Positions 24,762-62,700 are shown, counted from the first letter of the stretch. The stretch: 64,000 nt of DNA from Candidatus Iainarchaeum sp. (GCA_016198125.1 JACQJG010000009.1:5104-69103); one strand, 5' to 3'. The notes: generated from the sequence alone by a model not told the origin. A program made the numbers and translations.

Positions 24762-24785
24762 CCTTGTACCAGTACTCATTTAAAG
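24762..24785 (+). promoter_or_regulatory. CCTTGTACCAG motif plus TATA-like box (TCATTTAAAG) upstream of the aglH-alg14-alg13 operon
   Basis: Motif at 24762-24772, TATA at 24776-24785, ATG at 24819. This is one of several promoter-proximal TTGTACCA sites in the cluster. Confidence 0.45.
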
Positions 24786-24818
24786 CATGCGTTTTCCATT
24801 TCTTTTAGTGGGCTTTGC

Positions 24819-25916
24819 ATGCTTAAACTGTTGTCTAAACGGGTATTCTTTTTGCTGATTCTGGCATTCCTTATTGCACTCACCCGCATTGAAGCCTTGG
24901 TGGCCCTTATCGTATTTGTCATGTCTGCCACGCTGGTTTTTACCATTGTTCCATTTCTTGCCCACCGCATGAAACTTAGGGGTATTGTGGGAAAAGACAT
25001 GAACAAGTTCCACAAACCGGAAGTGCCAGAAATGGGGGGCATTGCAGTCATGCTGGGGTTTTTCGCAAGCGTTATTCTTGCACTCGTTTATTACGCGTAC
25101 CTCCACTTTTTTCCCGGATTGAATCTCACTGCGTTGCTTGCAGGCCTTCTCACTATTACCTTGGTGGGTTTTTTGGGCGTATTGGATGACCTGGTGGGAT
25201 GGAAGCAGGGCATCCGGCAATGGCAGCATGCCATCGTACCTGTTTTTGCAGCGCTCCCCTTGATGGCATTGCCTGAGGCGGTTGGATTCACTTCCATCAG
25301 CGTGCCTTTTTTTGGAGCGGTTCAACTGGGAATACTGTATTCTCTTGTCCTTGTGCCCATCGGCATTACTGGGGCCAGCAATGCGTCCAACATGCTTGCA
25401 GGATTTAATGGATTGGAAGCCGGCATGGGGCTTATTAATGCGTTGACTGTTTTGGCTGTTGCGTTCATTCTTGGAGAAATGGAAGCGGTTATTCTCATGG
25501 CTGGCCTGGCAGGGGCATTGGCTGCTTTTTTGTGGTTCAACTGGTATCCTGCAAAGATATTTCCAGGGGATTCACTAACGCTTATGACTGGGGCAGGAAT
25601 TGCGGCTGCAGTCATCATTGGCAACATGGAAAAAATTGGCATCATGCTGTTTGCCCTGTATTTTGTTGAGTTTGCATTCAAGGCCAAGCACAAATTCCAA
25701 AGCGAGTGTTTTGGTATTCCCCAAGCAGATGGAACCCTTAAAGCAAGCCCAAAAGGGGGAAGTGTAACCCACTGGATTATGAAACATGGAAAATTCACTG
25801 AGCCCCAGGTAACAGGCATCATTTTGACTGTGCAGGGAATTATCGCATTGATTGTATTTGTGTTATTCCTGCAGGGGTATCAGCTGGGCGTAAGCCAGGG
25901 GTTTGTGAAAGTATGA
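24819..25916 (+). CDS. aglH: polyprenyl-phosphate HexNAc-1-phosphate transferase (GPT/MraY/WecA family; AglH/Alg7-like)
   Basis: Polytopic protein with VLDDLVGWK, NASNMLAGFNGLEAG and IFPGDSLTL motifs characteristic of the family. Confidence 0.85.
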   Translation: MLKLLSKRVFFLLILAFLIALTRIEALVALIVFVMSATLVFTIVPFLAHRMKLRGIVGKDMNKFHKPEVPEMGGIAVMLGFFASVILALVYYAYLHFFPGLNLTALLAGLLTITLVGFLGVLDDLVGWKQGIRQWQHAIVPVFAALPLMALPEAVGFTSISVPFFGAVQLGILYSLVLVPIGITGASNASNMLAGFNGLEAGMGLINALTVLAVAFILGEMEAVILMAGLAGALAAFLWFNWYPAKIFPGDSLTLMTGAGIAAAVIIGNMEKIGIMLFALYFVEFAFKAKHKFQSECFGIPQADGTLKASPKGGSVTHWIMKHGKFTEPQVTGIILTVQGIIALIVFVLFLQGYQLGVSQGFVKV

Positions 25917-26359
25917 AGGTGTGCATTGCGGCTTCCGCAGGCGGGCATTTGACTGAAGTCTTGCAGGTGCATGAGGCATGGAAGAACGTGGACCATTTTT
26001 TTGTTTCGGATAAAAGGGAAAATGCCGTTGAATTGGCGAAAAAGGAAAAGGTATTCTTTGTCGCGTGCCCGCGGAGAAATCCTTTGCATTTGGCCCAAAG
26101 TTTTATGCAATCGTTCAAGCTTTTCGTTGTCCAAAAACCCGATGTAGTTATTTCCACGGGCGCAGACACTGCCATTTCTACGTGCCTTATTGCCAAACTG
26201 TTTGGAAAAAAAGTCATTTTCATTGAAAGCTATGCACGCATTTCAAGTCCAAGTCTTTCGGGCAAAATCATGTATCCATTGGCGGACCTTTTTCTTGTGC
26301 AATGGAAGCAGAACCTTTCCTTTTTTCCAAAAGCAATTTTTGCAGGGAGCGTGTTCTAA
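25913..26359 (+). CDS. Alg14-like membrane-associating subunit of a split GT28-type glycosyltransferase (PssD/Cps14F family)
   Basis: Contains MKVCIAASAGGHLTEVLQV...VVISTGADTA...IFIESYARISSPSLSGK. The start overlaps the aglH stop. Confidence 0.8.
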   Translation: MKVCIAASAGGHLTEVLQVHEAWKNVDHFFVSDKRENAVELAKKEKVFFVACPRRNPLHLAQSFMQSFKLFVVQKPDVVISTGADTAISTCLIAKLFGKKVIFIESYARISSPSLSGKIMYPLADLFLVQWKQNLSFFPKAIFAGSVF

Positions 26360-26851
26360 TTGAATATTTTTGTTGCAGCTGGAACCCACCCCCAGCCTTT
26401 TGACAGGCTATTCAGGGCATTGGACGAATTGAAAGCAAAAGGCGGTTTGAAGGACGAAGTGTTTGCCCAGACCGGTCATTCAGCGTATGTGCCGAAGAGC
26501 TTTGAAAGCAAATCTCTTTTGGACTTGAACGAGTTCAACAGGCGCTTTGCATGGGCCGACCTTGTAATCACCCATGGAGGCGCTGGAAGCATCTTGACTG
26601 CCTTTGAAGCAGGAAAAAAAGTCATGGTAGTTCCACGCCAAAAAAAATTCAACGAACATACGAACGACCATCAACTCGAACTTGCACGCGTCCTCGCAGT
26701 AGAAGGAAAGGCCTTGGAAGTCGTTGACATCAAAGACCTTGAAAAGACCATTGAAAAGGCGCGCACGTTCAAGCCGGACCTGCAAACGTCCAAGCAGGGC
26801 CTTGTCAAAGCAATTCGCGAAAAGTTAAAGGAATGGGAACGGAAAAAATGA
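26360..26851 (+). CDS. Alg13-like catalytic subunit of a split GT28-type glycosyltransferase (PssE/Cps14G family)
   Basis: Contains NIFVAAGTHPQPFDRL...ADLVITHGGAGSILTAFEAGKKVMVVPR...NDHQLELA. The TTG start directly abuts the Alg14-like stop. Confidence 0.8.
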   Translation: MNIFVAAGTHPQPFDRLFRALDELKAKGGLKDEVFAQTGHSAYVPKSFESKSLLDLNEFNRRFAWADLVITHGGAGSILTAFEAGKKVMVVPRQKKFNEHTNDHQLELARVLAVEGKALEVVDIKDLEKTIEKARTFKPDLQTSKQGLVKAIREKLKEWERKK

Positions 26852-26883
26852 GAAAAAGAGTAAAGTTTTTATTGAATCACTGA

Positions 26884-27567
26884 ATGAGTCGAATAATGGA
26901 AAAACAGTACAAATACCTGGGTTTAATCACAGCGCTCTATATTACTTTTCAATTAGTATCTGATGTAACTGCAGGAAAAATTGTTCAACTTTGGATGTTC
27001 ACGGTTTCAGCAACCGTGCTTTACTTTCCATTTACCTACATATTCGCAGACGTTCTAACAGAAGTTTATGGGTATTCCCGTGCAAGACGCGTGGTCTGGA
27101 CTGTTCTCCTGTGCTCGGTCATTGCAGGCATTGTATACACTTTTGTTGTGTTATTGCCCCCGGCAATTGGGTTTGATGCGAATGACGCGTACACAAGGGT
27201 CCTTGGACAAATTCCACGCATACTGCTTGGAGGATGGATTGCGGTTTGGGTTGGAGGAATATTAAACGACTATATTCTGGCAAAGATGAAGGTGTGGACC
27301 AGGGGAAAACACCTTTGGACTCGAACGATTAGTTCTACAATTGTCGGGGAAGGGGCAAACACGGTTTTATTTTATGTCATTGCGCTTTCAGGAGTCATTC
27401 CAAACGCTTTGCTTGTCGCGTCTATTTTTTCGGGCTGGTTTCTGAAGGTTTTGGTTGAAATCGTTTTCACGCCCGTCACATACTATGTGGTGAATTGGTT
27501 GAAGAAAGCGGAAAACGAAGACTTTTACGATACGAACACCAAGTTCAATCCATTCAAAATAGAGTAA
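26884..27567 (+). CDS. yhhQ: queuosine-precursor (7-deazaguanine) transporter, YhhQ/VUT family
   Basis: Contains YKYLGLITALYITFQLVSDVTAGKIV...YFPFTYIFADVLTEVYGYSRARRVVW and six TM segments, similar throughout to the YhhQ/DUF165 family. Confidence 0.8.
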   Translation: MSRIMEKQYKYLGLITALYITFQLVSDVTAGKIVQLWMFTVSATVLYFPFTYIFADVLTEVYGYSRARRVVWTVLLCSVIAGIVYTFVVLLPPAIGFDANDAYTRVLGQIPRILLGGWIAVWVGGILNDYILAKMKVWTRGKHLWTRTISSTIVGEGANTVLFYVIALSGVIPNALLVASIFSGWFLKVLVEIVFTPVTYYVVNWLKKAENEDFYDTNTKFNPFKIE

Positions 27568-29379: not shown

Positions 29380-29428
29380 ACCCGCACCAATGCAAATATT
29401 ATTAAGCGTGATTTAATAGGCTACTGGT

Positions 29429-30334
29429 ATGAAGGCAAAACGCACGCGAAGTACAGGGCAACGCGTAAAGGCCAGCATTGTTGTTGCAACAAAAAACCGG
29501 TTGCCCTTGCTGCAAAAAGGCCTTAACGCCATTCTTTCATTGAACGGCCCTTCGTGTGAAGTCCTTGTAATTGATGACGGGAGTTCTGATGAAACGTGGA
29601 ATTACTTGCAGGAGCAGGCCAGAAATCACCCCAACCTGAAGATACTGCAAAACACTTCTTCGCAAGGCCCGGCAGTGGCCCGCAACAAAGGCCTTCAACA
29701 CGCCAAAGGAGAAATTGCAATCATCATGGACGATGACTGCATTCCGTCCAAGGAATGGCTGGTACAATTAGTAGAACCTTTTGATCAAAACAAAAAGATT
29801 GCAGTCACGAGTTCTTTTGGTTATTATGGAGGCACGAGCACGGCGTACAGAATGGATGTTTTCCGCAAAATAGGATTCTTTGATGAAGCGTTTCCTGCAA
29901 ACTACCGGGAGGACACGGACACTATTTTCAAAATATTAGATGCAGGTTTTGAAGTCAAAGTCGTCAAAGCCCCGTTCGAGCACATTCACCCACCCCCAAA
30001 AGGAAAATGGAACCGAATTTCGTACATTGTCAGGCGCGTGTGGATTCACCGCTTTGACCCCCTTTTGTACAAAAAGCACCCTTCACGGGGCAAGGAATTT
30101 TTTGACGTGAAATGGGGCTTCATCCGAAATCCATTGCAGGACTTCAAGGCTGCCACAGGCCTTTGGTGGAGCAGGAAAAACTTTGTTTTGAGTTCGCCCC
30201 AGGGAATTAAATTCCTTGAAAACAAGAGCCCTGTACATGCACTCCTCATTGTACTTGCAGGAATCGCTTACATGTGGCTTGTAAAAGTGCCAAGATTGTA
30301 TGGAAGCTTTGTATATGGAAAGCTTTTACTGTAG
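29429..30334 (+). CDS. glycosyltransferase family 2
   Basis: Contains SIVVATKNRLPLL...VLVIDDGSSDET...IIMDDDC (DxD), the GT-A fold pattern. Confidence 0.8.
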   Translation: MKAKRTRSTGQRVKASIVVATKNRLPLLQKGLNAILSLNGPSCEVLVIDDGSSDETWNYLQEQARNHPNLKILQNTSSQGPAVARNKGLQHAKGEIAIIMDDDCIPSKEWLVQLVEPFDQNKKIAVTSSFGYYGGTSTAYRMDVFRKIGFFDEAFPANYREDTDTIFKILDAGFEVKVVKAPFEHIHPPPKGKWNRISYIVRRVWIHRFDPLLYKKHPSRGKEFFDVKWGFIRNPLQDFKAATGLWWSRKNFVLSSPQGIKFLENKSPVHALLIVLAGIAYMWLVKVPRLYGSFVYGKLLL

Positions 30335-31118: not shown

Positions 31119-31140
31119 TGAAAGGTCATGGTTGAATGGT

Positions 31141-31590
31141 ATGGGCATTCCAAAAACAGGGGTTTCAAAGAAAGGCTTGGCCATGCATTACTCGGTGGGA
31201 GCGCTTATAAGGAAAGGTGCGCGGTACCTTCTTATTGACAGGGTAAAACCGCCTTACGGGTATGCCGGCATTGCAGGACACGTGGACGAAGGCGAAACGC
31301 CTGAACAGGCATTGGTGCGCGAGACAAAAGAAGAAAGCGGGCTTGAAGTAAGAAAATTCAACCTTCTTTACGATGAAGAACTTGATTGGAATTACTGCAG
31401 TAAAGGCATAACCGCGCACCAGTGGTATTTTTATGAGTGCAAAACAGAAGGAAAAGTGAGGCGGGATTCCAAGGAAGCAAAACAGATCGGATGGTTTGCT
31501 AAAAAGGAACTGGAAAATCTTGCACTTGAACCTGTTTGGACGTACTGGTTTCAAAAGCAAGGGCTGATAAAAAAAAGAACAAGGGGTTGA
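31141..31590 (+). CDS. NUDIX hydrolase
   Basis: Nudix box GHVDEGETPEQALVRETKEESGL (G-x5-E-x7-REUxEExGU). The start is uncertain (TTG 31132, ATG 31141 or ATG 31183). Confidence 0.8.
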   Translation: MGIPKTGVSKKGLAMHYSVGALIRKGARYLLIDRVKPPYGYAGIAGHVDEGETPEQALVRETKEESGLEVRKFNLLYDEELDWNYCSKGITAHQWYFYECKTEGKVRRDSKEAKQIGWFAKKELENLALEPVWTYWFQKQGLIKKRTRG

Positions 31591-31591
31591 C

Positions 31592-32557
31592 ATGACTTAC
31601 ATCATTGAGGAAATTTTGGACACCACAAAATATGTGGTGGATAACGCCAAGCACGTTTCGATCAATGAACATAAACTCAATGACTTTTCAAAGGGGTTTA
31701 AACCGCACCAAGTAGACCATTGGATTTCTGCTGCTCCCTATAACTTGAATGGTTTGAACCCTGAACAGCGCTTTAACTTTTTGCTTCTTTTAAACTCCAT
31801 TAACTTTTCCTACTGGGGCGAACCCAAGTGGAGCATTCAATACAACAACCAATACTTTGACGGGGCTTTTGGCATGATTGCAGCCCTTGGAAAAGCCGTG
31901 GATGCTCGCATCCCAGTCTTAGATTTTTCTTATCTCGCCAAAATGAAAGAAGCAGAGTTTTCCAGCATCCTGGAAGGGAATACGCAGATTCCCTTGTTCG
32001 GGGAACGATTAACTATTGTTAGGTCACTGGGAGAAATCGTATCAAAAAAATTTCAGAACAACGCCACTGTCCTGCTTAAAGAAGCACAAGGCGATACAGG
32101 AGAGCTATTGGAGGTTCTAATCTCTCATTTTCCCTTTTTTCAGGACACCGAAATGTATAATGGAAGAAAAGTTCATTTTTACAAACGCGCGCAGTTGTTT
32201 ATTGGAGACGTTTACCAGGCTTTCAGTGAAGAAAAATGGGGGAGATTGAAGAACATTCACACGCTTACGGCATGCGCGGATTACAAAATCCCCCAAGTAC
32301 TCAGGCAGCTCGGCATATTGGAATATTCAGAGGAACTTACAAAAAAAGTGGATGCAAAAATCCAACTGCCAAAAGGCAGCCCTGAAGAGGTGGAAATCCG
32401 CGCACATACCATTTGGGCGGTTGAGAAAATAAGACAAGCGCTAAAAAAGAAGATGGATATCGACGCTATTCAGGTGGACCACTACTTATGGTTGCTGGGC
32501 CAGGACAAGAAAGGGTTGACCCGTCCCTATCATCGTACGAGGACCACCGCATATTAG
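31592..32557 (+). CDS. queuosine salvage protein, Qng1/DUF2419 family (queuosine 5-prime-phosphate N-glycosylase-like)
   Basis: Blocks NSINFSYW, GRKVHFYKRAQLFIGDVY, ACADYKIPQVLRQLGILEYSEEL, EVEIRAHTIWAVEKIR, VDHYLW and PYHRTRTTAY match, as I recall them, the conserved blocks of eukaryotic Qng1 (C9orf64). Confidence 0.8.
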   Translation: MTYIIEEILDTTKYVVDNAKHVSINEHKLNDFSKGFKPHQVDHWISAAPYNLNGLNPEQRFNFLLLLNSINFSYWGEPKWSIQYNNQYFDGAFGMIAALGKAVDARIPVLDFSYLAKMKEAEFSSILEGNTQIPLFGERLTIVRSLGEIVSKKFQNNATVLLKEAQGDTGELLEVLISHFPFFQDTEMYNGRKVHFYKRAQLFIGDVYQAFSEEKWGRLKNIHTLTACADYKIPQVLRQLGILEYSEELTKKVDAKIQLPKGSPEEVEIRAHTIWAVEKIRQALKKKMDIDAIQVDHYLWLLGQDKKGLTRPYHRTRTTAY

Positions 32558-33478: not shown

Positions 33479-33525
33479 CCCTTGTACCAACCCTTTCATG
33501 GTCGTACAAGGTATGCTTTTATAGG
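33479..33525 (+). promoter_or_regulatory. GTAC-centred inverted repeat (CCTTGTAC ... GTACAAGG) plus TATA-like box upstream of the rSAM-GT operon
   Basis: CCTTGTAC at 33480-33487 and its exact reverse complement at 33504-33511, 16 nt apart. TATA-like CTTTTATAGG at 33516-33525. ATG at 33581. It could also act as the terminator hairpin of the upstream operon. Confidence 0.45.
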
Positions 33526-33580
33526 TGCGCGTGCCAGAATTGTTAAACCGTAACAGGCGTGGTTTTCAAAGGGATTGGGC

Positions 33581-35053
33581 ATGAAAGTATTGTTTTTGAA
33601 TCCGCCGTTTTTGCCGCGTTATTCCAGGCAAAGCCGCAGTCCATGTGTTACAAAGAGCAACACCCTGTATTACCCATATTATTTGGCGTACGCCGCTGGA
33701 TGGACGGAAAAGCACGGTTTTAACGTAAAGCTCGCAGATGCGGTGGCCAATGAATGGTCGCGCACAGAAACAGTTGAGTTTGTTAAAAGGGAAAAGCCAG
33801 AACTTACAGTCATGGACACTTCTACTCCAAGCATTGTAAACGATGTTCAAGTGGCCGAGGCCATCAAAAAGGAAGTGCCTGAAACAAAAATAATGTTGGC
33901 TGGAACGTTTCCCACCAACATGAGTGAGTACACGCTGAACATGAGCAAGGCCGTTGACTCTGTTGCTGTTGGAGAGTATGATAACACTGCATTGTTTTTG
34001 GCCCGGGCATTGGAAGACCACAAGCCTTTAGAGGAAGTTCCGGGCATTGCCTTCAAACGCGAAGACAAACTGGTAAAGGGACCGCCTGCAAAATTATTGG
34101 AAAACCTGGACGAGTTGCCGTGGGCCTCGCAGATTTACTTGAAACACTTTGGCAGGAAAGGAATTGAAAAATACTTTTATGCAAGCACCACGTGGCCTGA
34201 GATGATGATTTTGACTGCAAGGGGTTGTCCCTGGAATTGCACGTTTTGCAATATTCCCATGAAAAAATCGTACAGGCCACGAAGCACGCAGAATGTAATT
34301 GAAGAAATGCAGTTCATTCAAAGTGAAATGCCCTGGGTGAATGAAATCATGTTCGAAGATGACACGTTTGCCGCTGTACGTAAACGCACGCTTGAATTGT
34401 GCGATGCATTCATTCAAAACAGGATCCAGTTGAAGTGGAGCTGCAATGGACGCGTTACAACAGAAAACGAAGTGCTTCAAAAAATGAAGGCTGCCGGGTG
34501 CAGGCTCGTTTGCGTGGGCTTTGAAAGCGCTACGCAGGAAGTGTTGAACAACATTGAAAAAATGGTTCCCTTGCGCCGGCAGTTTGAGTTCATGGAAGAC
34601 GCGCGCAAAACCGGGCTGAAAATCAATGGGTGCTTTATCTTCGGCTTGCCCGGAGACACGCCTGAGACCATGAAGAAGACCATTGAGATGGCCAAAGAGT
34701 TAAACCCAAACAGCGCGCAATTTTATCCTTTAATGGTGTACCCTGGAAACGAAGCATACCGCTGGGCCCAACGCAATGGCCTGTTGGCCACGGAAGACTA
34801 TTCCAAATGGGTAACCCCGGAAGGACTGCATACTACAACCGTTTCAAGGCCTGGCTTGCCGGCTGATGAAGTGGTCAGGTGGTGCAACCGCGCACGGCTG
34901 GAGTTTTACACGAATCCAAAGTTCTTAAAGAAAATGGCCGTGCAGGCTGCCGCCAATCCTGTTGAAGCCGTGCGCATGGCCAAAGCGTCCAAAGTGCTGT
35001 TCAAACACCTGGCGGATTATGCCACGCGCAAAGACGCCGTTGCAAAAGGATAA
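33581..35053 (+). CDS. cobalamin(B12)-binding-domain radical SAM enzyme (paralog 1, NPP-type N-terminus)
   Basis: MKVLFLNPPFLPRYSRQSRSP N-terminal domain, radical SAM cluster motif TARGCPWNCTFCN, and VGFESATQEVLNNIEK. The track start at 33575 is TTG; the ATG is at 33581. Confidence 0.85.
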   Translation: MKVLFLNPPFLPRYSRQSRSPCVTKSNTLYYPYYLAYAAGWTEKHGFNVKLADAVANEWSRTETVEFVKREKPELTVMDTSTPSIVNDVQVAEAIKKEVPETKIMLAGTFPTNMSEYTLNMSKAVDSVAVGEYDNTALFLARALEDHKPLEEVPGIAFKREDKLVKGPPAKLLENLDELPWASQIYLKHFGRKGIEKYFYASTTWPEMMILTARGCPWNCTFCNIPMKKSYRPRSTQNVIEEMQFIQSEMPWVNEIMFEDDTFAAVRKRTLELCDAFIQNRIQLKWSCNGRVTTENEVLQKMKAAGCRLVCVGFESATQEVLNNIEKMVPLRRQFEFMEDARKTGLKINGCFIFGLPGDTPETMKKTIEMAKELNPNSAQFYPLMVYPGNEAYRWAQRNGLLATEDYSKWVTPEGLHTTTVSRPGLPADEVVRWCNRARLEFYTNPKFLKKMAVQAAANPVEAVRMAKASKVLFKHLADYATRKDAVAKG

Positions 35054-35094
35054 GGCTTGCCACTGTTGAAATTTTAGAGTACGGAAAGGGTTGA

Positions 35095-38329: not shown

Positions 38330-38331
38330 GG

Positions 38332-47958: not shown

Positions 47959-48000
47959 AGTATGATAGTTTTGGCGTGCGAACTTAAAAAATGAAATGGT

Positions 48001-51753: not shown

Positions 51754-51779
51754 GTGGATTTTAACAAGGAGGAGTCATA

Positions 51780-53084: not shown

Positions 53085-54223
53085 AAATCCTTTATATCAA
53101 TGATACGTCTTACCCGGGCATAAACGCTGGAGCGATAAGGGCATACTATTTTTGCAGGTATTTGAGCGAATGGGGCAACGATATAACCCTTATCACTGAC
53201 AGGGAGAACAAGGAATTCCCGTGGAAAACAATAAAATTCAGTGGAAAATCCATTCCGCAAATCTTTCCCGGGTTTGGGTTTGTCCCGTCAATACTCAACC
53301 AGACGTTGAAGGAAACAAAAAAACAAAAATTTGACCTGGTTTTTGGGTCCATGCCTTTGTTCAGCTCCGGGTTGACGGCATACATCGTACACAAAATTGC
53401 ACGCATACCCCTGGTAATAGACGTCAGAGACCCGTTTATCAGAAGCATGTTCCAAGAAGAAAAAACAGCGGGCTACATTTACCAAAAATCGTTGAAAGGG
53501 AGGATCCTCAAACCGTTAGAGGCAAAAATATTTGGGGCTGCAAAAGAGATTATTGTAACCAACCCGGGAATAAAAAAAGAGCTGATGACCGTTCATAAAA
53601 TTCATGAAAAAAAAATTCGAGTGATTTACAACGGCTTTGACGAAAAGGGGTGGGAAAAAATAGAACCAAAAAAGTTTGTGAAAAAGACCCTGCTCGCTGC
53701 CGGAAGGATTACCACCGCAAAAAGTTTTGATGTCGTAATCGGGGCTTTGAAGGTATTGGGGGACGACTGGCAGTTTGTAATGTGCGGGGATGGCGATGCG
53801 GGAATACAAAAATTTTTGGATGCAGCAAAAAAAGAGGGGGTATCTGAAAAAGTCATTTTTGCAGGAAAACTCGCGCAACAAGAAGCCATCAGTTACACCA
53901 AGGGAGCCGATATCCTTGTTGCCAGCAACCAGTTGAACGATTCGCTGAAGTATGCCATTCCTGGCAGGACTTTTGAGTACATTGCTGCCGGCAAGCCCAT
54001 CCTGGCGATTTGGCCAAAAGGCGGCGATTTCGATGAATTCCTCACAAAGTTCGACTGTGGAAGAATAGTGGGAAGAGACCTGGAAGAGGTAAAAAAAACA
54101 ATCCTCTTCCTGTACGAGAACCGGAAAGAGCTGGGAGAAAACGCCCGGAAAGCGTCCAAAAATTTTACGAGAGAAGACCAGGCCAAGCAATTGATGCACG
54201 TTTTTGGGGAGGTCGTTTCTTGA
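53081..54223 (+). CDS. glycosyltransferase family 4
   Basis: The ATG at 53081 overlaps the upstream stop (ATGA). Contains MKILYINDTSYPGINAGAIRAYYF and GRTFEYIAAGKPILAI. Arg is encoded mostly by AGA/AGG, unlike flanking genes. Confidence 0.7.
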   Translation: MKILYINDTSYPGINAGAIRAYYFCRYLSEWGNDITLITDRENKEFPWKTIKFSGKSIPQIFPGFGFVPSILNQTLKETKKQKFDLVFGSMPLFSSGLTAYIVHKIARIPLVIDVRDPFIRSMFQEEKTAGYIYQKSLKGRILKPLEAKIFGAAKEIIVTNPGIKKELMTVHKIHEKKIRVIYNGFDEKGWEKIEPKKFVKKTLLAAGRITTAKSFDVVIGALKVLGDDWQFVMCGDGDAGIQKFLDAAKKEGVSEKVIFAGKLAQQEAISYTKGADILVASNQLNDSLKYAIPGRTFEYIAAGKPILAIWPKGGDFDEFLTKFDCGRIVGRDLEEVKKTILFLYENRKELGENARKASKNFTREDQAKQLMHVFGEVVS

Positions 54224-55329
54224 ATTCAACCACGTCAAAGGAACTTGTCAGGGAAGTGCTTGAAGAGTTAAGCCCGTTAAGGCAAAAGGAGGGAAACTAT
54301 TTTGACCCTGTTTACACGGGTTTGGAAAGGCAAAGACCTGTTGCTGAAATAGCAAAAGCCCTTCATGTCTCCGGGAAAAAAAAAGAGGCGGAGAAAAGCC
54401 TTGACTGGGTGGTTGGCGTGCAAAACCAGAATGGTTCGTGGAACGAGGTTTTGCCTGGAATAACGGCTGAGAGCAGCGTGGACACTTCGATTATTGGCAG
54501 AATCGTTTTGATGGCTTACAACAAAACAGGCAAAAAAAGTTACCTTAACGCCGCCCTGAGAGCGGGGCAGAATGTTTTGAAAAAAGAAATCGGCTACGGA
54601 AAGTTCATCAAGTCATTCCACCATTATGGGGACGTGCTGAATGTCAGCGCAAACTGCGCCGCCTTTTTTTACGCGCTTTTCCTGCAAACAAAGGACAAAG
54701 GTTTTTTGGATGCACGGGACAGGGCTGTCTTTAACTGCTGCAAATGGCAGTTCAAGGACGGAAGTTATCCCTACATGGGGAGCGAACGGGCTTATCCCTA
54801 TGAAAACCATTTTCATGTGCCCGACCCGCACTACCACGCAATAACATTGTATTACCTTCTCCTAAGCGACCCCCGCCTTGAAAACCCTTACCTGAAAATT
54901 TCGGCCGAAAAAGCCGTTAAATGGCTGGAATCCGTTCTGCACCCGAATGGGTGGGATTGGAGCAAGGGAAAACTGGTTTTTTCCCTTGGCTTTACTGCAG
55001 GTTATGCATATGCCGCTTATTGTTTTGATTTTTTCGGAAAAGAGGAACAAAAAAACATTTGCCTGAACAAGCTGCCGGAATTCAGGATGAAATACGGATT
55101 CGGCTTCTGGGAGGAAGCAAGAATAAACGAAACAATCAAGGGCATTGCATCGGAATTGTTCAACTTGGACTGGAAAACCCAATTGAATTACCCTTTTCCC
55201 GTCAGGTTGTGGAGGGCAAAGCAGATAATAAAAGGCCAGCTTTTTTTGAGGAAAAAAAAGGAGTTTTCGTTGTATTTTACTCCGCAGATACTGGATTGCC
55301 TGACGGAAAATGAGTGGAGGCATTCCTAA
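54220..55329 (+). CDS. alpha/alpha-toroid-like repeat protein (prenyltransferase/terpene-cyclase-like or glycan-modifying fold)
   Basis: Repeated W/Q-x-x-x-G-S-W type elements (VQNQNGSWNEV, WQFKDGSYPY, LHPNGWDWSKG). The TTG start overlaps the upstream stop (TTGA). Confidence 0.35.
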   Translation: MNSTTSKELVREVLEELSPLRQKEGNYFDPVYTGLERQRPVAEIAKALHVSGKKKEAEKSLDWVVGVQNQNGSWNEVLPGITAESSVDTSIIGRIVLMAYNKTGKKSYLNAALRAGQNVLKKEIGYGKFIKSFHHYGDVLNVSANCAAFFYALFLQTKDKGFLDARDRAVFNCCKWQFKDGSYPYMGSERAYPYENHFHVPDPHYHAITLYYLLLSDPRLENPYLKISAEKAVKWLESVLHPNGWDWSKGKLVFSLGFTAGYAYAAYCFDFFGKEEQKNICLNKLPEFRMKYGFGFWEEARINETIKGIASELFNLDWKTQLNYPFPVRLWRAKQIIKGQLFLRKKKEFSLYFTPQILDCLTENEWRHS

Positions 55330-57458
55330 TGAGACAGTTGCTCGCCAAAAATAAGAAAATAATCGTGGAAGAAGTTCCTCTCCCAAACTGCCTGGATAAT
55401 GGCGTGATTGTCGAAAACAGGTTTTCTTTGATCAGCACGGGAACAGAGTTAAGATCCCTCGGAGCAACGGACCTTGACGTAGTCAAAAAAGCCACAGACA
55501 CAAAGCTTTTGAAAAACCTTCCATTAATGATCAGGAGCTACGGGGTAAAAGGCTTCGTCGAAAAAATCCAATCCAAATTGGAGCATACAACCGAGCTTGG
55601 CTACAGTTCTGCAGGGGTTGTAGTCAGGGTTGGAAAAAACGTGAGGGATATTTCTGTAGGAGACAAGGTTGCTTGCGCAGGGGCAGGCTATGCCAACCAC
55701 AGCGAATTCGTCTTTGTTCCAAGAAACCTTGTCGCAAAAATACCCGAAAGAGTGTCGTTCGAAGAAGCCTGTTTCTCCACAGTCGCGTCCATAGCCATGC
55801 ATGGAATGAGAAGGGGAAAAATAGGATTGGGTGAAAAGGTTGCAGTTATAGGCTGCGGGTTGATTGGCGTACTTACATTGGAATTGCTGAAGGCGAACGG
55901 CGCCATGGGCATTGGCATTGAATCCGACCGCGAAAGAATCGCGCTGTTGAAGTCCATGGGATTGAACGTTGTACACGTGAGTGAGGCTGAAGAAACCGTG
56001 CACGATTTCAGCCAAGGAATCGGGGTTGATTCTGCAATAATCACGGCTGCAAGCGATAGCAACGAGCCCATGGAACTGGCTTCAAGGCTTTGCAGGGTCA
56101 ACGGACAAATCATCGTTGTAGGGGTTGTAGGGCTGACCTTGGACAGGAGCTCTGCATACAGGAAAGAAATTGACGTGAAGCTTTCAAGGAGTTATGGCCC
56201 CGGAAGGTACGACCCATTATATGAAGAGTTCGGCGTTGATTATCCTTTCGGTTATGTGCGGTGGACCGAGAACAGGAACATGCAAAGTTTTCTTGAGCTT
56301 GCAAAAGAAAAGAAGGTTGACGTGAGAAAACTTGTTGGAGGGATATATGAACTTGGTGATGCTGAAAAAGGGTATGATGAATTAAACGCAAGGAGAATTT
56401 TGGCTGCATTGATAAAGTATTCTGGGAAAAAAGATTCAACAAGCACGGTTGTTTTACCCGAAGCAAAGGCAAAAAAAACAGGGCAAATTAATGTTGGAAT
56501 CATTAGCGACAAGCGCTTTGAGGAAAACGCGCATTTGAATTTCTGGATTCCCAACATGGCAAAAATTCCTGATTTTAGCATCAAGGGAATTTCCCTTCAT
56601 AAAGGGAACGATTCCAAAGAAATGGCCCAAAGGTTCAATGCAGGGTTCTGCACGACAGACTTCAACGAAATAATAAACAATGCGGATATTGACCTTGTTT
56701 TTGTTTCAGCGACCTCGGAGCCGGAAGTGCATTCCATGATTGCCAAAAAGGCACTGGAGAAAGGGAAACATGTCTTTTTGGACAAGCCCATTGCCTTGAG
56801 CGAAAAAAAACTGGCTGAATTCAAGGAAGCCGTGAAAGAAAGCCGTTCAATCGTAATGGTGGGACACAACAGGCGGTTTTCGCCCTTAACAAAAGAGGTT
56901 AAAGATATTTTTTCGAAGTCCACTGGTCCCATGATAATAAATTACAGGGTCGTGGTTGCCCAAAAAGAAATCAATTCGCTTGCACCTGAAGAAGCTTACT
57001 CCGGGGAAATAATAAACGAAATGACGCATTTTTTCGATTTTTTCATGGCTTTAAGCAATGGTATTCCTGAAAAAATAGAGGCTTTTTCATGCGGGAACAT
57101 GGGCGGAAAAAACAAGACGGATTCAAACATTGTTGTGACAATAAAGTTTTCCGACGGTTCCATTGGAAACCTTGTATTCACTTCGATGGGTTCAAAAAAA
57201 TTCGGGAAAGAAAACATTGAATTGTTTAAAGGAGGCTACACCGTAAAGATAGAGGATTTCAAAAAGCTGATTGTTTTCGGTGAAAGGAGTTATTCAAAAG
57301 AATTCCAAAACCCTGAAAAAGGATGGCTTGAAGAATTAATGGAGTTAAAGAACGCGTTGAGAAGCGGAAAAACCCCCGAAAAAGACCTGGCGGATTCCAT
57401 TAAATCAAATGAAATCGCTTTCGAAGTCTACAAAAAAATCAATGGTGGAATGGCATGA
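55329..57458 (+). CDS. bi-domain oxidoreductase: N-terminal Zn-ADH/MDR-like plus C-terminal Gfo/Idh/MocA-like (copy 1)
   Basis: N-terminal IVENRFSLISTGTE and VAVIGCGLIGVLT. C-terminal INVGIISDKRF... and VGHNRRFSP. Start at the ATG at 55329 (TAATG overlap). Confidence 0.75.
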   Translation: MRQLLAKNKKIIVEEVPLPNCLDNGVIVENRFSLISTGTELRSLGATDLDVVKKATDTKLLKNLPLMIRSYGVKGFVEKIQSKLEHTTELGYSSAGVVVRVGKNVRDISVGDKVACAGAGYANHSEFVFVPRNLVAKIPERVSFEEACFSTVASIAMHGMRRGKIGLGEKVAVIGCGLIGVLTLELLKANGAMGIGIESDRERIALLKSMGLNVVHVSEAEETVHDFSQGIGVDSAIITAASDSNEPMELASRLCRVNGQIIVVGVVGLTLDRSSAYRKEIDVKLSRSYGPGRYDPLYEEFGVDYPFGYVRWTENRNMQSFLELAKEKKVDVRKLVGGIYELGDAEKGYDELNARRILAALIKYSGKKDSTSTVVLPEAKAKKTGQINVGIISDKRFEENAHLNFWIPNMAKIPDFSIKGISLHKGNDSKEMAQRFNAGFCTTDFNEIINNADIDLVFVSATSEPEVHSMIAKKALEKGKHVFLDKPIALSEKKLAEFKEAVKESRSIVMVGHNRRFSPLTKEVKDIFSKSTGPMIINYRVVVAQKEINSLAPEEAYSGEIINEMTHFFDFFMALSNGIPEKIEAFSCGNMGGKNKTDSNIVVTIKFSDGSIGNLVFTSMGSKKFGKENIELFKGGYTVKIEDFKKLIVFGERSYSKEFQNPEKGWLEELMELKNALRSGKTPEKDLADSIKSNEIAFEVYKKINGGMA

Positions 57459-59560
57459 AAGCAGTTTTCGCGCAAAAAGGAAAAATTGTGGTAGAGGACA
57501 TTCCGGTTCCTGCATGCCCTGAGAATGGAGTGCTTGTGGAAACGCATTACTCGGTGGTAAGCCCTGGAACCGAGGGGCGCGCGCTAAAGGGAAGCGGGAC
57601 CAGTGCAACCCAACTCGCACAGCAAAAGAACGCATTCAAGACTCTTAAAGACCACGTGGACCGCAAAGGCGCCGGTTTTGCATGGAAGCTGGTGGAAGAA
57701 CGCTTGAACCGTTTAACTCCTTTGGGGTACAGCTGTGCAGGGCGCATTGTGCAGGTGGGAAAAAAAGTGGACCAGTTAAGCGTTGGAGAATGGGTGAGTT
57801 GTGCCGGAACGGGTTTTGCCAATCATGCAGGTTTTGCCGCAGTTCCAAAAAATCTTGTGGCGCGCATTCCAAGCGGAGTGAGTGCAGATGAAGGTTCGCT
57901 TGCAACATTGGGTGCAGTGGGCATTCATGCCCTGCACCAGGCAGAATTGAAGGCCGGGGAAAACGTGGCCATTATTGGTTTGGGTTTGATGGGCATGCTC
58001 TCGCTCGCACTGGCAAAAGCCCTTGGGTTCAAGGCATGGGGAATTGAATTAAATTCTGAGCGGCGCGGCCTGGCCAAAAAAATGGGACTGGAAGCGTTCT
58101 CATTGGAAGAATGCGAACATTCCATTCGCGCGCAGACCCATGAAAAGGGCGTTGATGCCGTCATCGTGGCGGCCGCAGGAAACGATGATGAGGCCGTGCG
58201 TTTGGCCAACAGCCTGTGCAGAAACCGCGGGACGATTGCAGTGCTTGGAGTTGTTGGATTGGACTTGGACTGGAGTGCCGCATACCACAAGGAAATAAAA
58301 CTTGTCATGGCGCGCAGTTACGGTCCCGGAAGGTATGATGCGCAGTACGAATTGGATGGAATGGATTATCCTTTTGAGTACGTGCGTTTTACGGAACAGC
58401 GGAACATGGGACTTTTTTTGGACCTCTTGAAGGAAAAGAAAGTGGACGGCCGCGCCTTTATTACTGCGGTGTTTGAAGTGGATGATGCGCCCAAGGCATA
58501 CGAGGCCGCAATGAAGGCGGATGGCCTGGGCGTGCTTTTAAAATACAGTGGGCATGCGGTCACTGAAAAAAAAATGCAATTGCACAAAACCGTACAACCG
58601 GTTGAAGGCAAAATCGGCACTGCCCTTATAGGACCCGGACACTTTGCAAGGGAAATCCACGTTCCAAACCTGTACAATGACAAGCGCTTTGACGTGAGGG
58701 CAGTTGCAGCAGGAACGGGTGCCAGTGCAATGGAAACCGCCAGGCTCTTGAACGCGCCCATTGCTACAACGGATTATGCGGAGGCGCTAAGCGGTTCAGG
58801 CGTTAAACTTGCATTCATTTCCACGCCCCCTGAAAGGCACGCGGAAATGGTGCTTGCAGCGCTCAACGCGGGCAGGCACGTTTTTGTAGAAAAACCATTG
58901 TGCGTGAATGAAGAAGAATTGAAGGCCATTGAAAAGGCAAAGGACTTGCACCCTGAATGCATGGTCATGGTGGGGCACAACCGGCGCTACTCGGCGTGCG
59001 CGCAAAAACTAGTGGAGTGGCTGGACAACCGCGAAGGCCCTTTGATGGCCCAGTACAACGTGCGCATTCCCCCTTCAGAGGGCACGCGCGTTCCTTTATG
59101 GAGCGGCGGACGCATTGTGGAGGAGATGACCCACTTCCTGGACTTTTTTGAGTTCATCGCGCAAAGCCCTGCAACCAGCCTGCATGCGCGCACGTTGGGT
59201 GGATTGAAACCGCCCCATTCCATTGACTCCAATATAGTGGTGAATGTTTCCTTTGAGAATGGCGCGCAGTGCACGCTCGCATTCACCACGCTTGCAGGCC
59301 CTTCCGCCTGCAAGGAGGAACTTATTGTGCACAAAGGCGGGGGAACAGCAAGTGTAAGGGATTTTTTGGAATTGGAAGTGCAGGATTCCCTGCATGGAAA
59401 GGAAAGATGGACGTTCAATGGAAAGGGCTGGAAGGAAGAATTGGACGCGCTTGCGCATGCCCTGCAGGGAACGCGTTCCATTGAACGCGAATGGCAGTCC
59501 AGTATCCGGGCCACGGCCGCGGCATTTGAAATTGCAGCACAAATAAGGGGATTGCATTGA
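57455..59560 (+). CDS. bi-domain oxidoreductase: N-terminal Zn-ADH/MDR-like plus C-terminal Gfo/Idh/MocA-like (copy 2)
   Basis: Paralog of the upstream gene (LVETHYSVVSPGTE, VAIIGLGLMGML, IGTALIGPGHFA, VGHNRRYSA). ATGA overlap. Uses CGN Arg codons, unlike copy 1. Confidence 0.75.
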   Translation: MKAVFAQKGKIVVEDIPVPACPENGVLVETHYSVVSPGTEGRALKGSGTSATQLAQQKNAFKTLKDHVDRKGAGFAWKLVEERLNRLTPLGYSCAGRIVQVGKKVDQLSVGEWVSCAGTGFANHAGFAAVPKNLVARIPSGVSADEGSLATLGAVGIHALHQAELKAGENVAIIGLGLMGMLSLALAKALGFKAWGIELNSERRGLAKKMGLEAFSLEECEHSIRAQTHEKGVDAVIVAAAGNDDEAVRLANSLCRNRGTIAVLGVVGLDLDWSAAYHKEIKLVMARSYGPGRYDAQYELDGMDYPFEYVRFTEQRNMGLFLDLLKEKKVDGRAFITAVFEVDDAPKAYEAAMKADGLGVLLKYSGHAVTEKKMQLHKTVQPVEGKIGTALIGPGHFAREIHVPNLYNDKRFDVRAVAAGTGASAMETARLLNAPIATTDYAEALSGSGVKLAFISTPPERHAEMVLAALNAGRHVFVEKPLCVNEEELKAIEKAKDLHPECMVMVGHNRRYSACAQKLVEWLDNREGPLMAQYNVRIPPSEGTRVPLWSGGRIVEEMTHFLDFFEFIAQSPATSLHARTLGGLKPPHSIDSNIVVNVSFENGAQCTLAFTTLAGPSACKEELIVHKGGGTASVRDFLELEVQDSLHGKERWTFNGKGWKEELDALAHALQGTRSIEREWQSSIRATAAAFEIAAQIRGLH

Positions 59561-61119
59561 CTCAGCACAACGTGTACTGGGAACACGCCTTGGAGAAAGT
59601 GCCGCACCTCTTAACACTGCTTGACACCAACCCTCATTCCCCAACATTTGGGTGTTTTGACAAGCGTTACTGGCACCGCAAAACGCGGGATTATGTGAAC
59701 GCGCGCATGCAGGAAGGCGTGTACACGCTTGCATTGTTGTACACTGTTCAACACCCAGAAAACAAATGGTTTTCAGCGCCCTTTGTAAAAGAATGGGCGC
59801 TTGCAGGCATGAATTTTTGGGCCAGGATTCAAGGCAGGAAAGGCGGTTTTGATGAGTACCTGCCCAATGAAGACAATTACGATGCCACTGCGTTTTCATC
59901 GTATGCCATTGCACGCGCGCATGAACTGCTGGAATGCCGTGATGAAAGCGTTTTGAATGCACTGGAAAACGCCGGAAAGTTTTTGCACGCACATGAAGAA
60001 CCCTTTGTAGCCAACCACGAAGCGGGTGCGGGTGCGGCCCTGCAGTGGATTTCCATTGCAACGAAAAAAGAAAAGTACGCGGAATGGGCCAAGAAAAAAA
60101 TAGAGAACCTTCTTATAAACCAGCAGGCCGAGGGATGGTTTTCCGAATACAACGGCTTTGACGTCGGGTATCACACTTTTTCTTTGTATTATTTGAACGC
60201 ATACTATGTGGCAGCGCAACACGCATGGACGGAAGAAGCCCTGAAAAAAGCATTTTCTTTTTTTGCATATTTTGTGCACCCGGATTGCTCGGTTGGAGGC
60301 CATTATGGAAGCAGGGAAACCTACTTTGTACTGCCAACGCCTTTTGAACAGTGGGCGCAAAAAAGCGCGTTGAACGGCGCCTTGGCGCACGCACTGCGCA
60401 GAGGCCTGGAAACCGGAGCGCTTGCAGGGCCTCTTTCATTTGACGACCGGTATTGTGCGGACGCGCTTTACCCTTTTCTGGAATGCGCCCAATTACACCC
60501 TGTTGAAAAAAAGGCGTCCCTGCCTTTTCAGGGAAACGACTTTGACGAATATTTTGAGGGTGCAGGAATGCTTGTGTCCAGGCATGGAAAGTATTACACT
60601 ATCGTGAACGCGCGCAATGGAGGCATTGGCAAGCATTTCATAGGAGAAAAACTTGCGTGGAACGACACCGGATGGGTGTTCGAGCAGAATGGAACCTTGT
60701 ATTGCACCCATGGACCTTCCATTGGATTCAATCCCGTGAAAAAAAACGAGGCCGTGGTGCGCGGGCATTTTTACGGGAAAAAATCCGTGCTTCCAAGCCC
60801 TTCAACACTTGCGGGTTTGCGTGCACTCAACGCCATTGGATTGGGCTCCCATACCAAGAAAATGGTCCGCAACAAACTTATATTAGACCAAAAACCATCG
60901 GCCTTTGAATTCGAACGCAGGATTGCTTTCACAGAGCACGGCACCGAAGTCCAGGATTCTTTCGGGAAGAATGTTCCTGTTGAAAAACTCGCGCTTACCG
61001 CAAACTTTTCAACCCTTTATTCCACGAGCCTGGGTTTGTGGCATTCAAACGCAACGCCTATTCCCCCACCCCACGTGGAATGGAAGGGAAATTCAGCTTG
61101 CATGCGCGTGCAAGGCTAA
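59557..61119 (+). CDS. hypothetical alpha/alpha-toroid-like protein (heparinase II/III- or C5-epimerase-like context)
   Basis: 520 aa. Contains FGCFDKRYWHRKTRDY and aromatic/acidic helical repeats (GGFDEYLPNEDNYDATAF, EGWFSEYNGFDVGYHTF). In my experience this type of protein accompanies bi-domain oxidoreductases in bacterial polysaccharide loci. The assignment is context-based. Confidence 0.3.
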   Translation: MTQHNVYWEHALEKVPHLLTLLDTNPHSPTFGCFDKRYWHRKTRDYVNARMQEGVYTLALLYTVQHPENKWFSAPFVKEWALAGMNFWARIQGRKGGFDEYLPNEDNYDATAFSSYAIARAHELLECRDESVLNALENAGKFLHAHEEPFVANHEAGAGAALQWISIATKKEKYAEWAKKKIENLLINQQAEGWFSEYNGFDVGYHTFSLYYLNAYYVAAQHAWTEEALKKAFSFFAYFVHPDCSVGGHYGSRETYFVLPTPFEQWAQKSALNGALAHALRRGLETGALAGPLSFDDRYCADALYPFLECAQLHPVEKKASLPFQGNDFDEYFEGAGMLVSRHGKYYTIVNARNGGIGKHFIGEKLAWNDTGWVFEQNGTLYCTHGPSIGFNPVKKNEAVVRGHFYGKKSVLPSPSTLAGLRALNAIGLGSHTKKMVRNKLILDQKPSAFEFERRIAFTEHGTEVQDSFGKNVPVEKLALTANFSTLYSTSLGLWHSNATPIPPPHVEWKGNSACMRVQG

Positions 61120-61127
61120 GGCTCTAT

Positions 61128-61153
61128 GGTTGTATGAAAAGGCATTTAAATAC
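61128..61153 (+). promoter_or_regulatory. degenerate motif GGTTGTATGAAAA plus TATA-like box (GCATTTAAATAC) upstream of rSAM paralog 4
   Basis: Same motif-then-TATA order as the other sites, with a weaker match (TTGTAtgAAAA). Confidence 0.3.
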
Positions 61154-61205
61154 TGGTCTTTGTTAAAAGTATTAAAACGCGTTTTACGTGCAGAAGGTCG
61201 TATTC

Positions 61206-62666
61206 ATGCCTGTAAAAATCATGATGTTGAATCCCCCAAGCAAGTACGCCAAGAATGTAGTGCGCGACCTGTTCTGGGGATGCTGGTGCAAGGGCCAGCG
61301 CATTGCTTCCGCCAAGTTTCCGCCCACTACCCTGTTGTGCCTGGATGCAGTGGCGGAAAAAGAAGGCCATACGTCTGTTTTGGCTGACTCCCAGGCAGAA
61401 GACCTGTCTTTTGAACAGGTAAAGGAAATTGTGCGCAAAGAGAAACCGGATGCCGTGCTCATCCCCTCTGCAACCATGACTTTCGCAGAAGACATGGACA
61501 CGCTTGCAGACCTCAAAAAAGAAGTGGATTTTTACTCGATGAGCTTTGGAACCCATGTAACGTTTGAAACCGAGACTGCATTGAAAAATGAATCCCTGGA
61601 CATTGCGATTCTGCGCGAAGCCGAGGCCACGCTTGCAGAATTGTTGAACGTGATTGATAAAGGCGAAAAACTGGATGGCGTGAAAGGAATCGCGTTCCGT
61701 GAGAACGGACAAATCCGCATCAACGAACCCAGGCCCTGGATTCAAAACCTGGATGAATTGCCGTTTCCAAACCGGAAAAAAATTATAAATTATTCCTATT
61801 TCAATCCCCTGGTAAAAAAACTTCCCTGGACCACGGCAGTCACCTCAAGAGGGTGCCCTGCCAGGTGCAATTACTGCACTTCTCCAACGTTTTACGGGAA
61901 CACGTGGCGCGCGCGCAGTGCCGAGAGCGTGGTGGCAGAAATGGAAGAAGCAGCAAAGCTTGGGTTCAAGGAAATTTTTTACCGCGATGAAACATTTCCT
62001 GCAGACCGCAGGCGCGTGGTTGAACTATGCAATCTGATAAAAGAGCGTGGCCTTGAAATGAGCTGGATTTGCTCTTCAAGGGTAAGCACCATGGACAGGG
62101 AATTAATGCAATTAATGCGCAACGCCGGCTGCCACATGATCCGGCTTGGAATTGAATCAGGAAACCAGCGCGTCTTGAACAACATCAAAAAGGGAGCAAC
62201 GGTTCAACAAGCCGAAAATGTATTCACCTGGTCCCATGAAATTGGAATGGAAACCCATGCACACCTGATGATGGGCAACATTGGGGAAACCATGGAAACC
62301 ATCAACGAAACCATTTCATTCATCAAACGCGTGAATCCCACCACCATTACTGTAGGCGCGTTCACTCCCTATCCTGGAACGCCCTTGTTTGAGGAGGTCA
62401 AGCGCCAGGATGCAAGCATTGGAGACGGAACGCAAAGCGATTTAAGCCGCGTTCATTCAACGGGCTTTTTCAGCAAGTACATTTGCGGCATGTCCGACCA
62501 GGACGTTGGAAAGGCCGTAAGGCGCGCATACAAGGAGTTCTATCTCCGGCCTTCCTATATTTTGCAGCGCCTGACAGGCGTGCGTTCCGTGGATGAATTC
62601 AGGCGGCTTGTAGCCGCTGGAATCGAGGTAACCCATTTTGCCACGGGAAACGATGACAGCGAGTAA
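61206..62666 (+). CDS. cobalamin(B12)-binding-domain radical SAM enzyme (paralog 4, NPP-type N-terminus)
   Basis: Contains MPVKIMMLNPPSKY..., TSRGCPARCNYCTSP and LGIESGNQRVLNNIKKG. The track start is GTG at 61188; the ATG at 61206 is preferred. Confidence 0.85.
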   Translation: MPVKIMMLNPPSKYAKNVVRDLFWGCWCKGQRIASAKFPPTTLLCLDAVAEKEGHTSVLADSQAEDLSFEQVKEIVRKEKPDAVLIPSATMTFAEDMDTLADLKKEVDFYSMSFGTHVTFETETALKNESLDIAILREAEATLAELLNVIDKGEKLDGVKGIAFRENGQIRINEPRPWIQNLDELPFPNRKKIINYSYFNPLVKKLPWTTAVTSRGCPARCNYCTSPTFYGNTWRARSAESVVAEMEEAAKLGFKEIFYRDETFPADRRRVVELCNLIKERGLEMSWICSSRVSTMDRELMQLMRNAGCHMIRLGIESGNQRVLNNIKKGATVQQAENVFTWSHEIGMETHAHLMMGNIGETMETINETISFIKRVNPTTITVGAFTPYPGTPLFEEVKRQDASIGDGTQSDLSRVHSTGFFSKYICGMSDQDVGKAVRRAYKEFYLRPSYILQRLTGVRSVDEFRRLVAAGIEVTHFATGNDDSE

Positions 62667-62670
62667 GAGG

Positions 62671-62700
62671 CGTTTTTGTACCAAAAACGGCTTTTAAAGG
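62671..62700 (+). promoter_or_regulatory. perfect inverted repeat CGTTTTTG-TAC-CAAAAACG immediately upstream of the TATA-like box CTTTTAAAGG
   Basis: Two 8-bp arms that are exact reverse complements, with a 3-nt spacer (62671-62689). TATA at 62691-62700. ATG at 62735. Confidence 0.5.

Follow-up and report, generated by a model that had tools for sequence, protein, structure and literature searches.

A directional promoter-proximal element predicted to mark a glycan-assembly regulon in Iainarchaeota

The stretch of DNA analysed here, referred to as the window, comprises 64,000 nucleotides (nt) of a contig (GCA_016198125.1, JACQJG010000009.1:5104-69103) from an uncultured DPANN archaeon of the phylum Iainarchaeota (Diapherotrites), recovered from groundwater metagenomes. 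Its first 24.7 kb hold housekeeping genes (SMC, Lon, ribosomal proteins L1, L10, L11 and L21e, Spt5, SecE, Rpb4, KsgA, TBP and aglB), and a large glycan-assembly cluster runs from 24.8 kb onward. The cluster encodes GT4/AglH, Alg14, Alg13, many GT1 and GT2 glycosyltransferases and methyltransferases, together with five B12-binding radical SAM (B12-rSAM) proteins, one SPASM radical SAM (rSAM-SPASM) protein, a UDP-glucose dehydrogenase (UDPG-DH) and GFO/ADH fusions. The subject of this work is a short element of consensus TTGTACCAAAA that precedes the TATA boxes of several operons in the cluster. The original prediction, made from the window alone, had described a GTAC-centred motif at these positions and read it as the dyad-symmetric operator of a dimeric regulator coordinating the whole cluster. 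Each of the sites that it listed with a TATA box is present, with a TATA-like octamer just downstream, and five operons of the window are headed by the element:

24762-24772, plus strand: motif CCTTGTACCAG, with the core TTGTACCA at 24764-24771 and the TATA box ATTTAAAG at 24778-24785; putative promoter of the GT4/AglH-Alg14-Alg13 operon 24819-26851, which probably extends to 28241.
33480-33491, plus strand: distal canonical motif CCTTGTACCAAC, with the TATA box CTTTTATA at 33516-33523, 24 nt downstream, which is a non-canonical spacing; putative promoter of the B12-rSAM, GT2, GT1, GT1, GT2 operon 33575-39009.
43784-43770, minus strand: motif CTTTTGTACCAAAAA in a divergent intergenic region, with the TATA box TTTTAAAT at 43762-43755; putative promoter of the B12-rSAM, GT2, rSAM-SPASM, GT1 operon 43707-39012.
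51659-51670, plus strand: motif CCTTGTACCAAA, with the TATA box CTTTAAAA at 51673-51680; putative promoter of the operon 51780-61119, which encodes UDPG-DH, a GT1, an unknown gene, two GFO/ADH fusions and a 520-aa protein.
62671-62689, plus strand: motif CGTTTTTGTACCAAAAACG, with the TATA box CTTTTAAA at 62691-62698; putative promoter of a B12-rSAM gene (62735 onwards) followed by a GT2 gene.

Which part of these sites carries the signal? The octamer originally put forward as the over-represented core, CCTTGTAC, does occur 14 times in the window as compared with 0.8 copies expected from dinucleotide shuffles; however, the expectation rises to 4 copies under an order-3 Markov model and to 11 under a maximal-order model, and 13 other 8-mers of the window are more extreme, such that CCTTGTAC is about the 14th most surprising. 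Ten of its 14 copies lie in coding sequence, on both strands and in mixed frames (x-Tyr-Lys-x, Val-Gln-Gly, Ala-Leu-Tyr). Because higher-order Markov models explain most of the excess and 10 of the 14 copies are coding, the count of CCTTGTAC is weak evidence. These observations are what an explanation without regulatory meaning would draw upon, whether it invokes oligonucleotide or codon bias, promoters duplicated along with the B12-rSAM genes, hairpin terminators or GTAC methylation; in addition, four of the five sites in the window have a paralogous rSAM gene after them or a co-directional gene before them, and two of the sites are able to form hairpins. As the core motif CCTTGTAC was rejected, since its excess mostly reflects coding sequence or local oligomer bias and its CCTT prefix, local to the window genome, is without conservation in relatives. 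The word that does stand out is TTGTACCA, with 11 copies in the window against 1.4 expected. Six of these copies fall in intergenic DNA, which makes up ~5% of the window (P about 1e-5); all six are inside the glycan cluster between 24.7 and 62.7 kb, and five of them point to a TATA box. No TATA box follows the sixth, which is located at 51744 (minus strand) in the UDPG-DH leader. The most over-represented 10-mer of the window is TTGTACCAAA. By sequence comparison, the informative core is GTACCA within the consensus TTGTACCAAAA, of which [G/a]TACCA followed by an A-run is the conserved part.

The GT4/AglH protein (24819-25916) has thousands of homologs, the closest at ~60-64% identity. Loci of relatives, numbered with the prefix L below, were first obtained by exact-protein look-up; metagenomes were then scanned with an alignment built from 46 homologs, which yielded 80 loci of at most 21 kb each; the close set consists of the window and 30 non-redundant loci with GT4 identities of 45-64% and GC contents of 26-57%. 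The de novo motif search suggested with the original prediction was carried out as a k-mer enrichment test on 211 oriented upstream regions of the close set (2.7% of its sequence), in which TTGTACCA ranked first among 8-mers, above every TATA word, with 18 of its 38 copies falling in these regions (P about 1e-18). Moreover, 32 of the 116 GTACCA copies in the close set are followed by a TATA-like hexamer that starts 5-9 nt downstream, as compared with a background of 2% (P about 3e-27). No comparable TATA peak is seen for the reverse orientation, in which just 6 copies have the hexamer at 8-10 nt. Among all 180 words that can be formed from its six bases, GTACCA is the outlier, such that TATA follows 29% of its copies versus ~6% for the others.

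These comparisons bear directly on the explanations without regulatory meaning. The motif recurs as an intergenic, oriented and TATA-linked sequence in ~27 independent loci, where it precedes non-homologous genes, and its promoter copies are no by-product of codons. A terminator is likewise contradicted by motif copies in divergent intergenic regions that have no upstream 3' end (window 43774, L009 15300, L022 and L030) and by a palindrome or stem that is not conserved. GTAC methylation cannot be the conserved feature because the form used in low-GC lineages, CATACCAAT, carries ATACCA and hence has no GTAC. On this evidence, non-functional explanations are effectively excluded.

The anatomy of the element is resolved by alignment of 26 sites, which consist of TTGTACCA, an A-run (A in 20, 17 and 17 of the sites), ~4-5 variable bases and then TTTAAA or TTTATA, with almost no information in the positions 5' of TTG. 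The first two T's are variable once a single mismatch is allowed (CTGTACCA, TCGTACCA, GTGTACCA), and it is this variation together with the low-GC form that confines the invariant core to [G/a]TACCA. Motif-less promoters in the same loci are A-rich between 6 and 12 nt 5' of the TATA hexamer, as expected for the B recognition element (BRE). Where the motif is present, the A-run that follows CCA coincides with this zone and the GTACC part sits just upstream of it, at positions of about -38 to -47 relative to the predicted start site. Such merging of the motif into the A-rich BRE zone, combined with the strict orientation and the 5-9 nt TATA spacing typical of core elements, is what would be expected of a class-specific core-promoter element, or extended BRE, which in place of a classical regulator would be read directly by a specialised paralog of TFB or TBP or by a factor associated with the pre-initiation complex. 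A minority of sites, however, have spacers of 11-27 nt, which a core element would not tolerate, and this explanation is judged improbable. Were it true, the element would be a sigma-factor-like switch in minimal-genome DPANN archaea for the cell-surface glycan and its dolichol carrier, and the structure being switched would be the interface of the cell with its host or environment.

The same geometry also bears on the proposed symmetric operator. A dimeric repressor whose footprint over the BRE and TATA box blocks TFB and TBP would account for a motif that ends only 4-7 nt from the TATA octamer, at which distance a typical 20-bp footprint would cover the BRE, and for the partial dyad TTG-N3-CAA, which is extended to perfect 8-bp arms at 62671-62689 and to 5-bp arms at 43770-43784. 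It would also suit the UDPG-DH promoter, where two additional inverted copies lie 3' of the TATA box, and TATA and BRE zones that look strong. However, the dyad symmetry is not general: both sets of arms are special cases, and the positions upstream of TTG are unconserved. The orientation is fixed with respect to transcription (32 copies versus ~6), which a symmetric operator would not need, and because each promoter of the divergent gene pairs in L022 and L030 has its own facing copy, the element is directional and is not a shared symmetric operator. The sites are furthermore positioned upstream of the TATA box, not over it or the start site, and additional downstream copies are confined to the UDPG-DH leader. 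Such a position suits an activator site at least as well as it does an operator, and a dimeric repressor is considered a doubtful explanation on this evidence.

The orthologous promoters of relatives, a comparison likewise called for at the outset, retain the motif at several kinds of gene. It is found at the GT4/AglH promoter in 14 loci (the window, L014, L015, L021-L024, L027, L030-L032, L038, L040 and L041), among which the surrounding intergenic sequence is otherwise unalignable. The UDPG-DH promoter carries it in the window and L041, B12-rSAM promoters in the window (three genes), L016, L017, L033, L040 and L041, and rSAM-SPASM promoters in L009 and L015, with the one-mismatch variant TTGCACCA in L023. 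At aglB the element is usually missing, with L011 and L028 as exceptions. Copies of TTGTACCA are mostly intergenic in loci with GT4 identities of at least 45-49% (GC 26-57%), and in more distant loci (38-47% identity) none of 16 copies is intergenic. This places the limit of the clade where GT4 is no more than 47% identical, beyond which the upstream motif is missing except in L041 (45%), which has the promoter arrangement. Judged from these comparisons, the element is maintained by selection over a phylum-level clade.

The relation between aglB and GT4/AglH differs among genomes. In many relatives (L008, L009, L011, L016, L017, L025) the two genes are only 3-16 nt apart in one operon with no promoter between them. 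In the window (24754-24818) and in about a dozen other genomes, a motif-bearing promoter lies between them, and the first glycan-assembly step would therefore be transcribable independently of the oligosaccharyltransferase.

Is the element specific to glycan genes? All of the ~41 identified genes downstream of motif-plus-TATA sites in the window and close loci are glycan-related. They include GT4, aglB, Alg14, LPG_synthase_TM, NDP-sugar epimerases and dehydratases, UDP-GlcNAc 2-epimerase, FdtA/dTDP-sugar isomerase, carbamoyltransferase, methyltransferase, NTP-transferase and cis-prenyltransferase genes. The last of these, which serves synthesis of the polyprenol or dolichol carrier, has the motif at its promoter in two loci (L034 2066-2815 and L036 1025-1774), so that the predicted regulon reaches from the glycan to its lipid carrier. 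In the same loci, 116 operon-leading genes lack the motif, with 92 Pfam families matched that include TBP (6) and L21e (4). Counted as glycan and non-glycan genes, the ratio is 41 to 0 with the motif versus 40 to 76 without it (Fisher's exact test, P about 2e-15). As the original prediction had noted for aglB, tbp and the Lon-like gene among others, no motif occurs at any promoter in 1-24.7 kb, including those of SMC, Lon, L1/L10/L11, Spt5, SecE, Rpb4, L21e, TBP and aglB. Two non-glycan loci of relatives (L096, L097) had no promoter-type site, and neither did the additional flanking sequence (L093) of the 118-kb contig that carries the window, in which extension by ~3 kb to the left and ~1.2 kb to the right gave no new sites.

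Within the cluster, control of the whole by this element is not borne out, since it serves only 5-7 of the ~11 promoters; those at 29429, 43885, 46285-48132 (minus strand), 48606 and 50981 are without it. The remaining copies and candidate sites in the window are as follows:

29424-29431, minus strand: possible variant CATACCAG, then 5 nt and TATTAAAT at 29418-29411, upstream of the GT1 gene 29379-28210; tentative.
33504-33511, plus strand: inverted half copy GTACAAGG, 4 nt 5' of the TATA box and without the CCA part; its function is uncertain.
51708-51717, plus strand: CATTTGGTAC, which repeats 51663-51672 exactly over 10 nt in inverted orientation, in the leader 3' of the TATA box.
51740-51751, minus strand: third copy TTGTACCAAAAG, in the UDPG-DH leader, with no TATA box after it.
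61130-61141, plus strand: degenerate candidate TTGTATGAAAAG with 2 mismatches, 2 nt before ATTTAAAT at 61144-61151; putative promoter of the B12-rSAM gene 61188-62666.

The candidate at 29424-29431 is of the ATACCA type, the form found in low-GC relatives. Of the two degenerate sites proposed originally, the one at 61130-61141 is plausible, with no statistical support on its own, and the one at 50899 is implausible, having three mismatches and no spacer. The UDPG-DH leader (51681-51779) thus contains two additional inverted copies, at 51708-51717 and 51740-51751; the former, read on the minus strand, is followed by ATATTAAA, which might represent an antisense promoter or a second binding site.

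Several further features of the cluster were observed. The longest open reading frame of the B12-rSAM gene 42214-43806 (minus strand) begins at a TTG at 43806, upstream of the TATA box, but translation most likely begins at the ATG at 43707 (497 aa), which follows a GGGGG Shine-Dalgarno-like run. For the B12-rSAM protein encoded at 43885-45321 (paralogs at 33575, 42214, 61188 and 62735), the nearest relatives in species-representative genomes are bacterial, at 31-39% identity, from Deltaproteobacteria, Bacteroidales and Dehalococcoidales. This hints at a bacterial origin of the family with later expansion in Iainarchaeota glycan clusters. A scan of genome contigs with the same protein returned bacterial matches only, and no orthologous promoters were obtained from it. 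A Vut_1 transporter, a NUDIX hydrolase and a queuosine-salvage (Q_salvage) gene are located among the glycosyltransferase genes (26884-27567, 31132-32557).

As a candidate for the protein that would read the element, the original prediction named the product of 50981-51634, a protein of 217 aa with weak DUF7523 and ACT matches. It was rejected as the regulator. None of the ~90 fetched GT4 loci encodes a homolog, and only a handful of homologs exist overall. In L096 and L097 the ortholog is divergent from an operon of the lysW-lysX-argC-argB-lysJ-lysK type, and all three orthologs have a palindrome GTTATA-N2-3-TATAAC, unrelated to GTACCA, over their own promoter (window 50828-51634; L096 9900-10666; L097 7543-8302); it is because the orthologs flank lysW operons and have this palindrome of their own that the product was set aside. 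The window has no lysW-type operon near 50981-51634, and this winged helix-turn-helix/ACT-like gene has seemingly been displaced into the glycan cluster. The most likely identity of the protein is an amino-acid-responsive autoregulator, brought into the glycan cluster in this genome, and not the factor that reads the motif.

The element is a directional sequence of 6-11 bp that abuts the BRE zone at fixed spacing, is restricted to glycan promoters and is conserved at orthologous ones. We hypothesize, with a probability of about 0.78, that it constitutes a lineage-wide, orientation-dependent, promoter-proximal cis-regulatory site marking an N-glycosylation and dolichol-glycan regulon in Iainarchaeota. 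The original prediction is supported in its claim of a cis-regulatory element tied to glycan-gene promoters, and the refuting outcomes that it named did not come about, the element being kept at orthologous promoters of distant relatives and its promoter copies being no coding by-product. Several observations weigh against this hypothesis. The TATA boxes were called by consensus alone, and the longer spacers described above include that of the window site at 33482. Some 35-40 glycan-gene promoters, among them 9 aglB promoters, are without the motif. All of the comparison loci were centred on the GT4 gene (~20 kb around it), such that the non-glycan control amounts to ~75 promoters. Clustering of the proteins in the close loci revealed no recurrent DNA-binding gene except TBP, which belongs to the DUF655-Rpb4-L21e/TBP/aglB synteny, and an RNA search found the window sequence in groundwater DNA metagenome runs only. 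Finally, the TATA boxes and A-rich BRE zones in promoters with the motif resemble those of other promoters and do not look obviously weak, a finding that lends activation no advantage over repression. The synteny just mentioned, in which DUF655, Rpb4 and L21e/TBP are followed by aglB, is itself kept in at least seven Iainarchaeota loci (window 15841-18187; L008 725-3031; L011 5375-7628).

How would such a site act? In the mechanism that we propose, the element would be bound by a sequence-specific protein whose gene lies elsewhere in the genome, and this protein would touch or compete with TFB and TBP, and the genes of the pathway are most likely switched together through this predicted docking site of their regulator. 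The chances are about even that the bound protein is an activator that helps to recruit TFB or TBP, by analogy with ara-box/XylR, EarA and TFB-RF1. The rationale for favouring an activator is based on the location of the site upstream of the BRE, its strict orientation and its narrow spacing. Repression is less likely but still plausible because the site is near enough to the TATA box for a bound protein to occlude the BRE, and because the BRE and TATA box do not look weak.

The motif would tie GT4/AglH, the first committed step, nucleotide-sugar tailoring, the B12-radical-SAM modifiers and the cis-prenyltransferase into a concrete predicted regulon. It provides a bait sequence for regulator hunting by DNA affinity purification sequencing, electrophoretic mobility shift assay or phylogenetic profiling, and a motif-bearing promoter could help to recognise glycan-pathway genes of unknown function, such as 54220-55329 and 59557-61119. 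The impact is on specialists because this is a computational prediction in an uncultured lineage. In the full-text literature, no description was found of the motif, of a regulator or cis-element of archaeal N-glycosylation genes or of DPANN promoter codes; there was no relevant co-mention of TTGTACCA with archaea, and almost nothing was found on gene regulation in uncultured DPANN archaea.

Among known archaeal systems, the Thermococcales glycolytic motif of TrmBL1/Tgr, TATCAC-N5-GTGATA, is a regulon-defining palindrome found near the BRE and TATA box of sugar-metabolism genes, on both sides of the TATA box, and its position relative to TATA decides between activation and repression. Its sequence is unrelated to TTGTACCAAAA, and the present motif is almost always upstream of TATA. 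More generally, archaeal activators such as Ptr2, TFB-RF1, EarA and XylR typically occupy a site upstream of the BRE, from which TFB or TBP is recruited, whereas repressors bind over or downstream of the promoter (PMC5512572), and the published activator sites are immediately upstream of the BRE (PMC5512572, PMC7264815, PMC10665913). The element is most like the ara-box and the EarA sites. The ara-box of Sulfolobales pentose genes, AACATGTT, directly adjoins the BRE/TATA on the upstream side and is the target of the activator XylR, a factor that was identified only years after the box itself (PMC7264815, PMC5512572). The ara-box and the present motif are both short 8-bp elements immediately upstream of the BRE/TATA, common to a sugar-related regulon and conserved in one lineage. 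The ara-box, however, is a perfect palindrome of pentose catabolism, and the present element is asymmetric and orientation-fixed, concerns glycan biosynthesis in another phylum and is predicted from sequence.

EarA sites (TACATA; A(C/G)(C/G)TACA(T/C)) lie upstream of the archaellum operons of Methanococcales and Thermococcales, where the activator is thought to recruit TFB (PMC10665913, PMC5512572). Like the present element, they are short, oriented motifs that have TAC as their core and keep a fixed distance from the A-rich BRE that follows them. EarA sites differ in being separated from the BRE downstream of them by 9 nt, in often being present in as many as three repeats and in serving a single operon (arl/fla), whereas the present motif abuts the BRE zone, is usually found in a single copy and occurs at many glycan-gene promoters. 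The sites of TFB-RF1 (PF1088, Pyrococcus furiosus) and Ptr2 (Methanocaldococcus jannaschii) are similar in lying upstream of the BRE, with recruitment of TFB or TBP there (PMC5512572). Their promoters are few and have a demonstrably weak BRE/TATA (PMC5512572), in contrast to the ordinary BRE/TATA and the broad, phylum-wide regulon described here. Identity of the present motif with the ara-box, the EarA box or the Thermococcales glycolytic motif was rejected, TTGTACCAAAA differing from AACATGTT (PMC7264815) and TACATA (PMC10665913) as it does from the TrmBL1/Tgr palindrome given above. The kind of element is well known, while the motif and the regulon that it is predicted to mark appear to be new.

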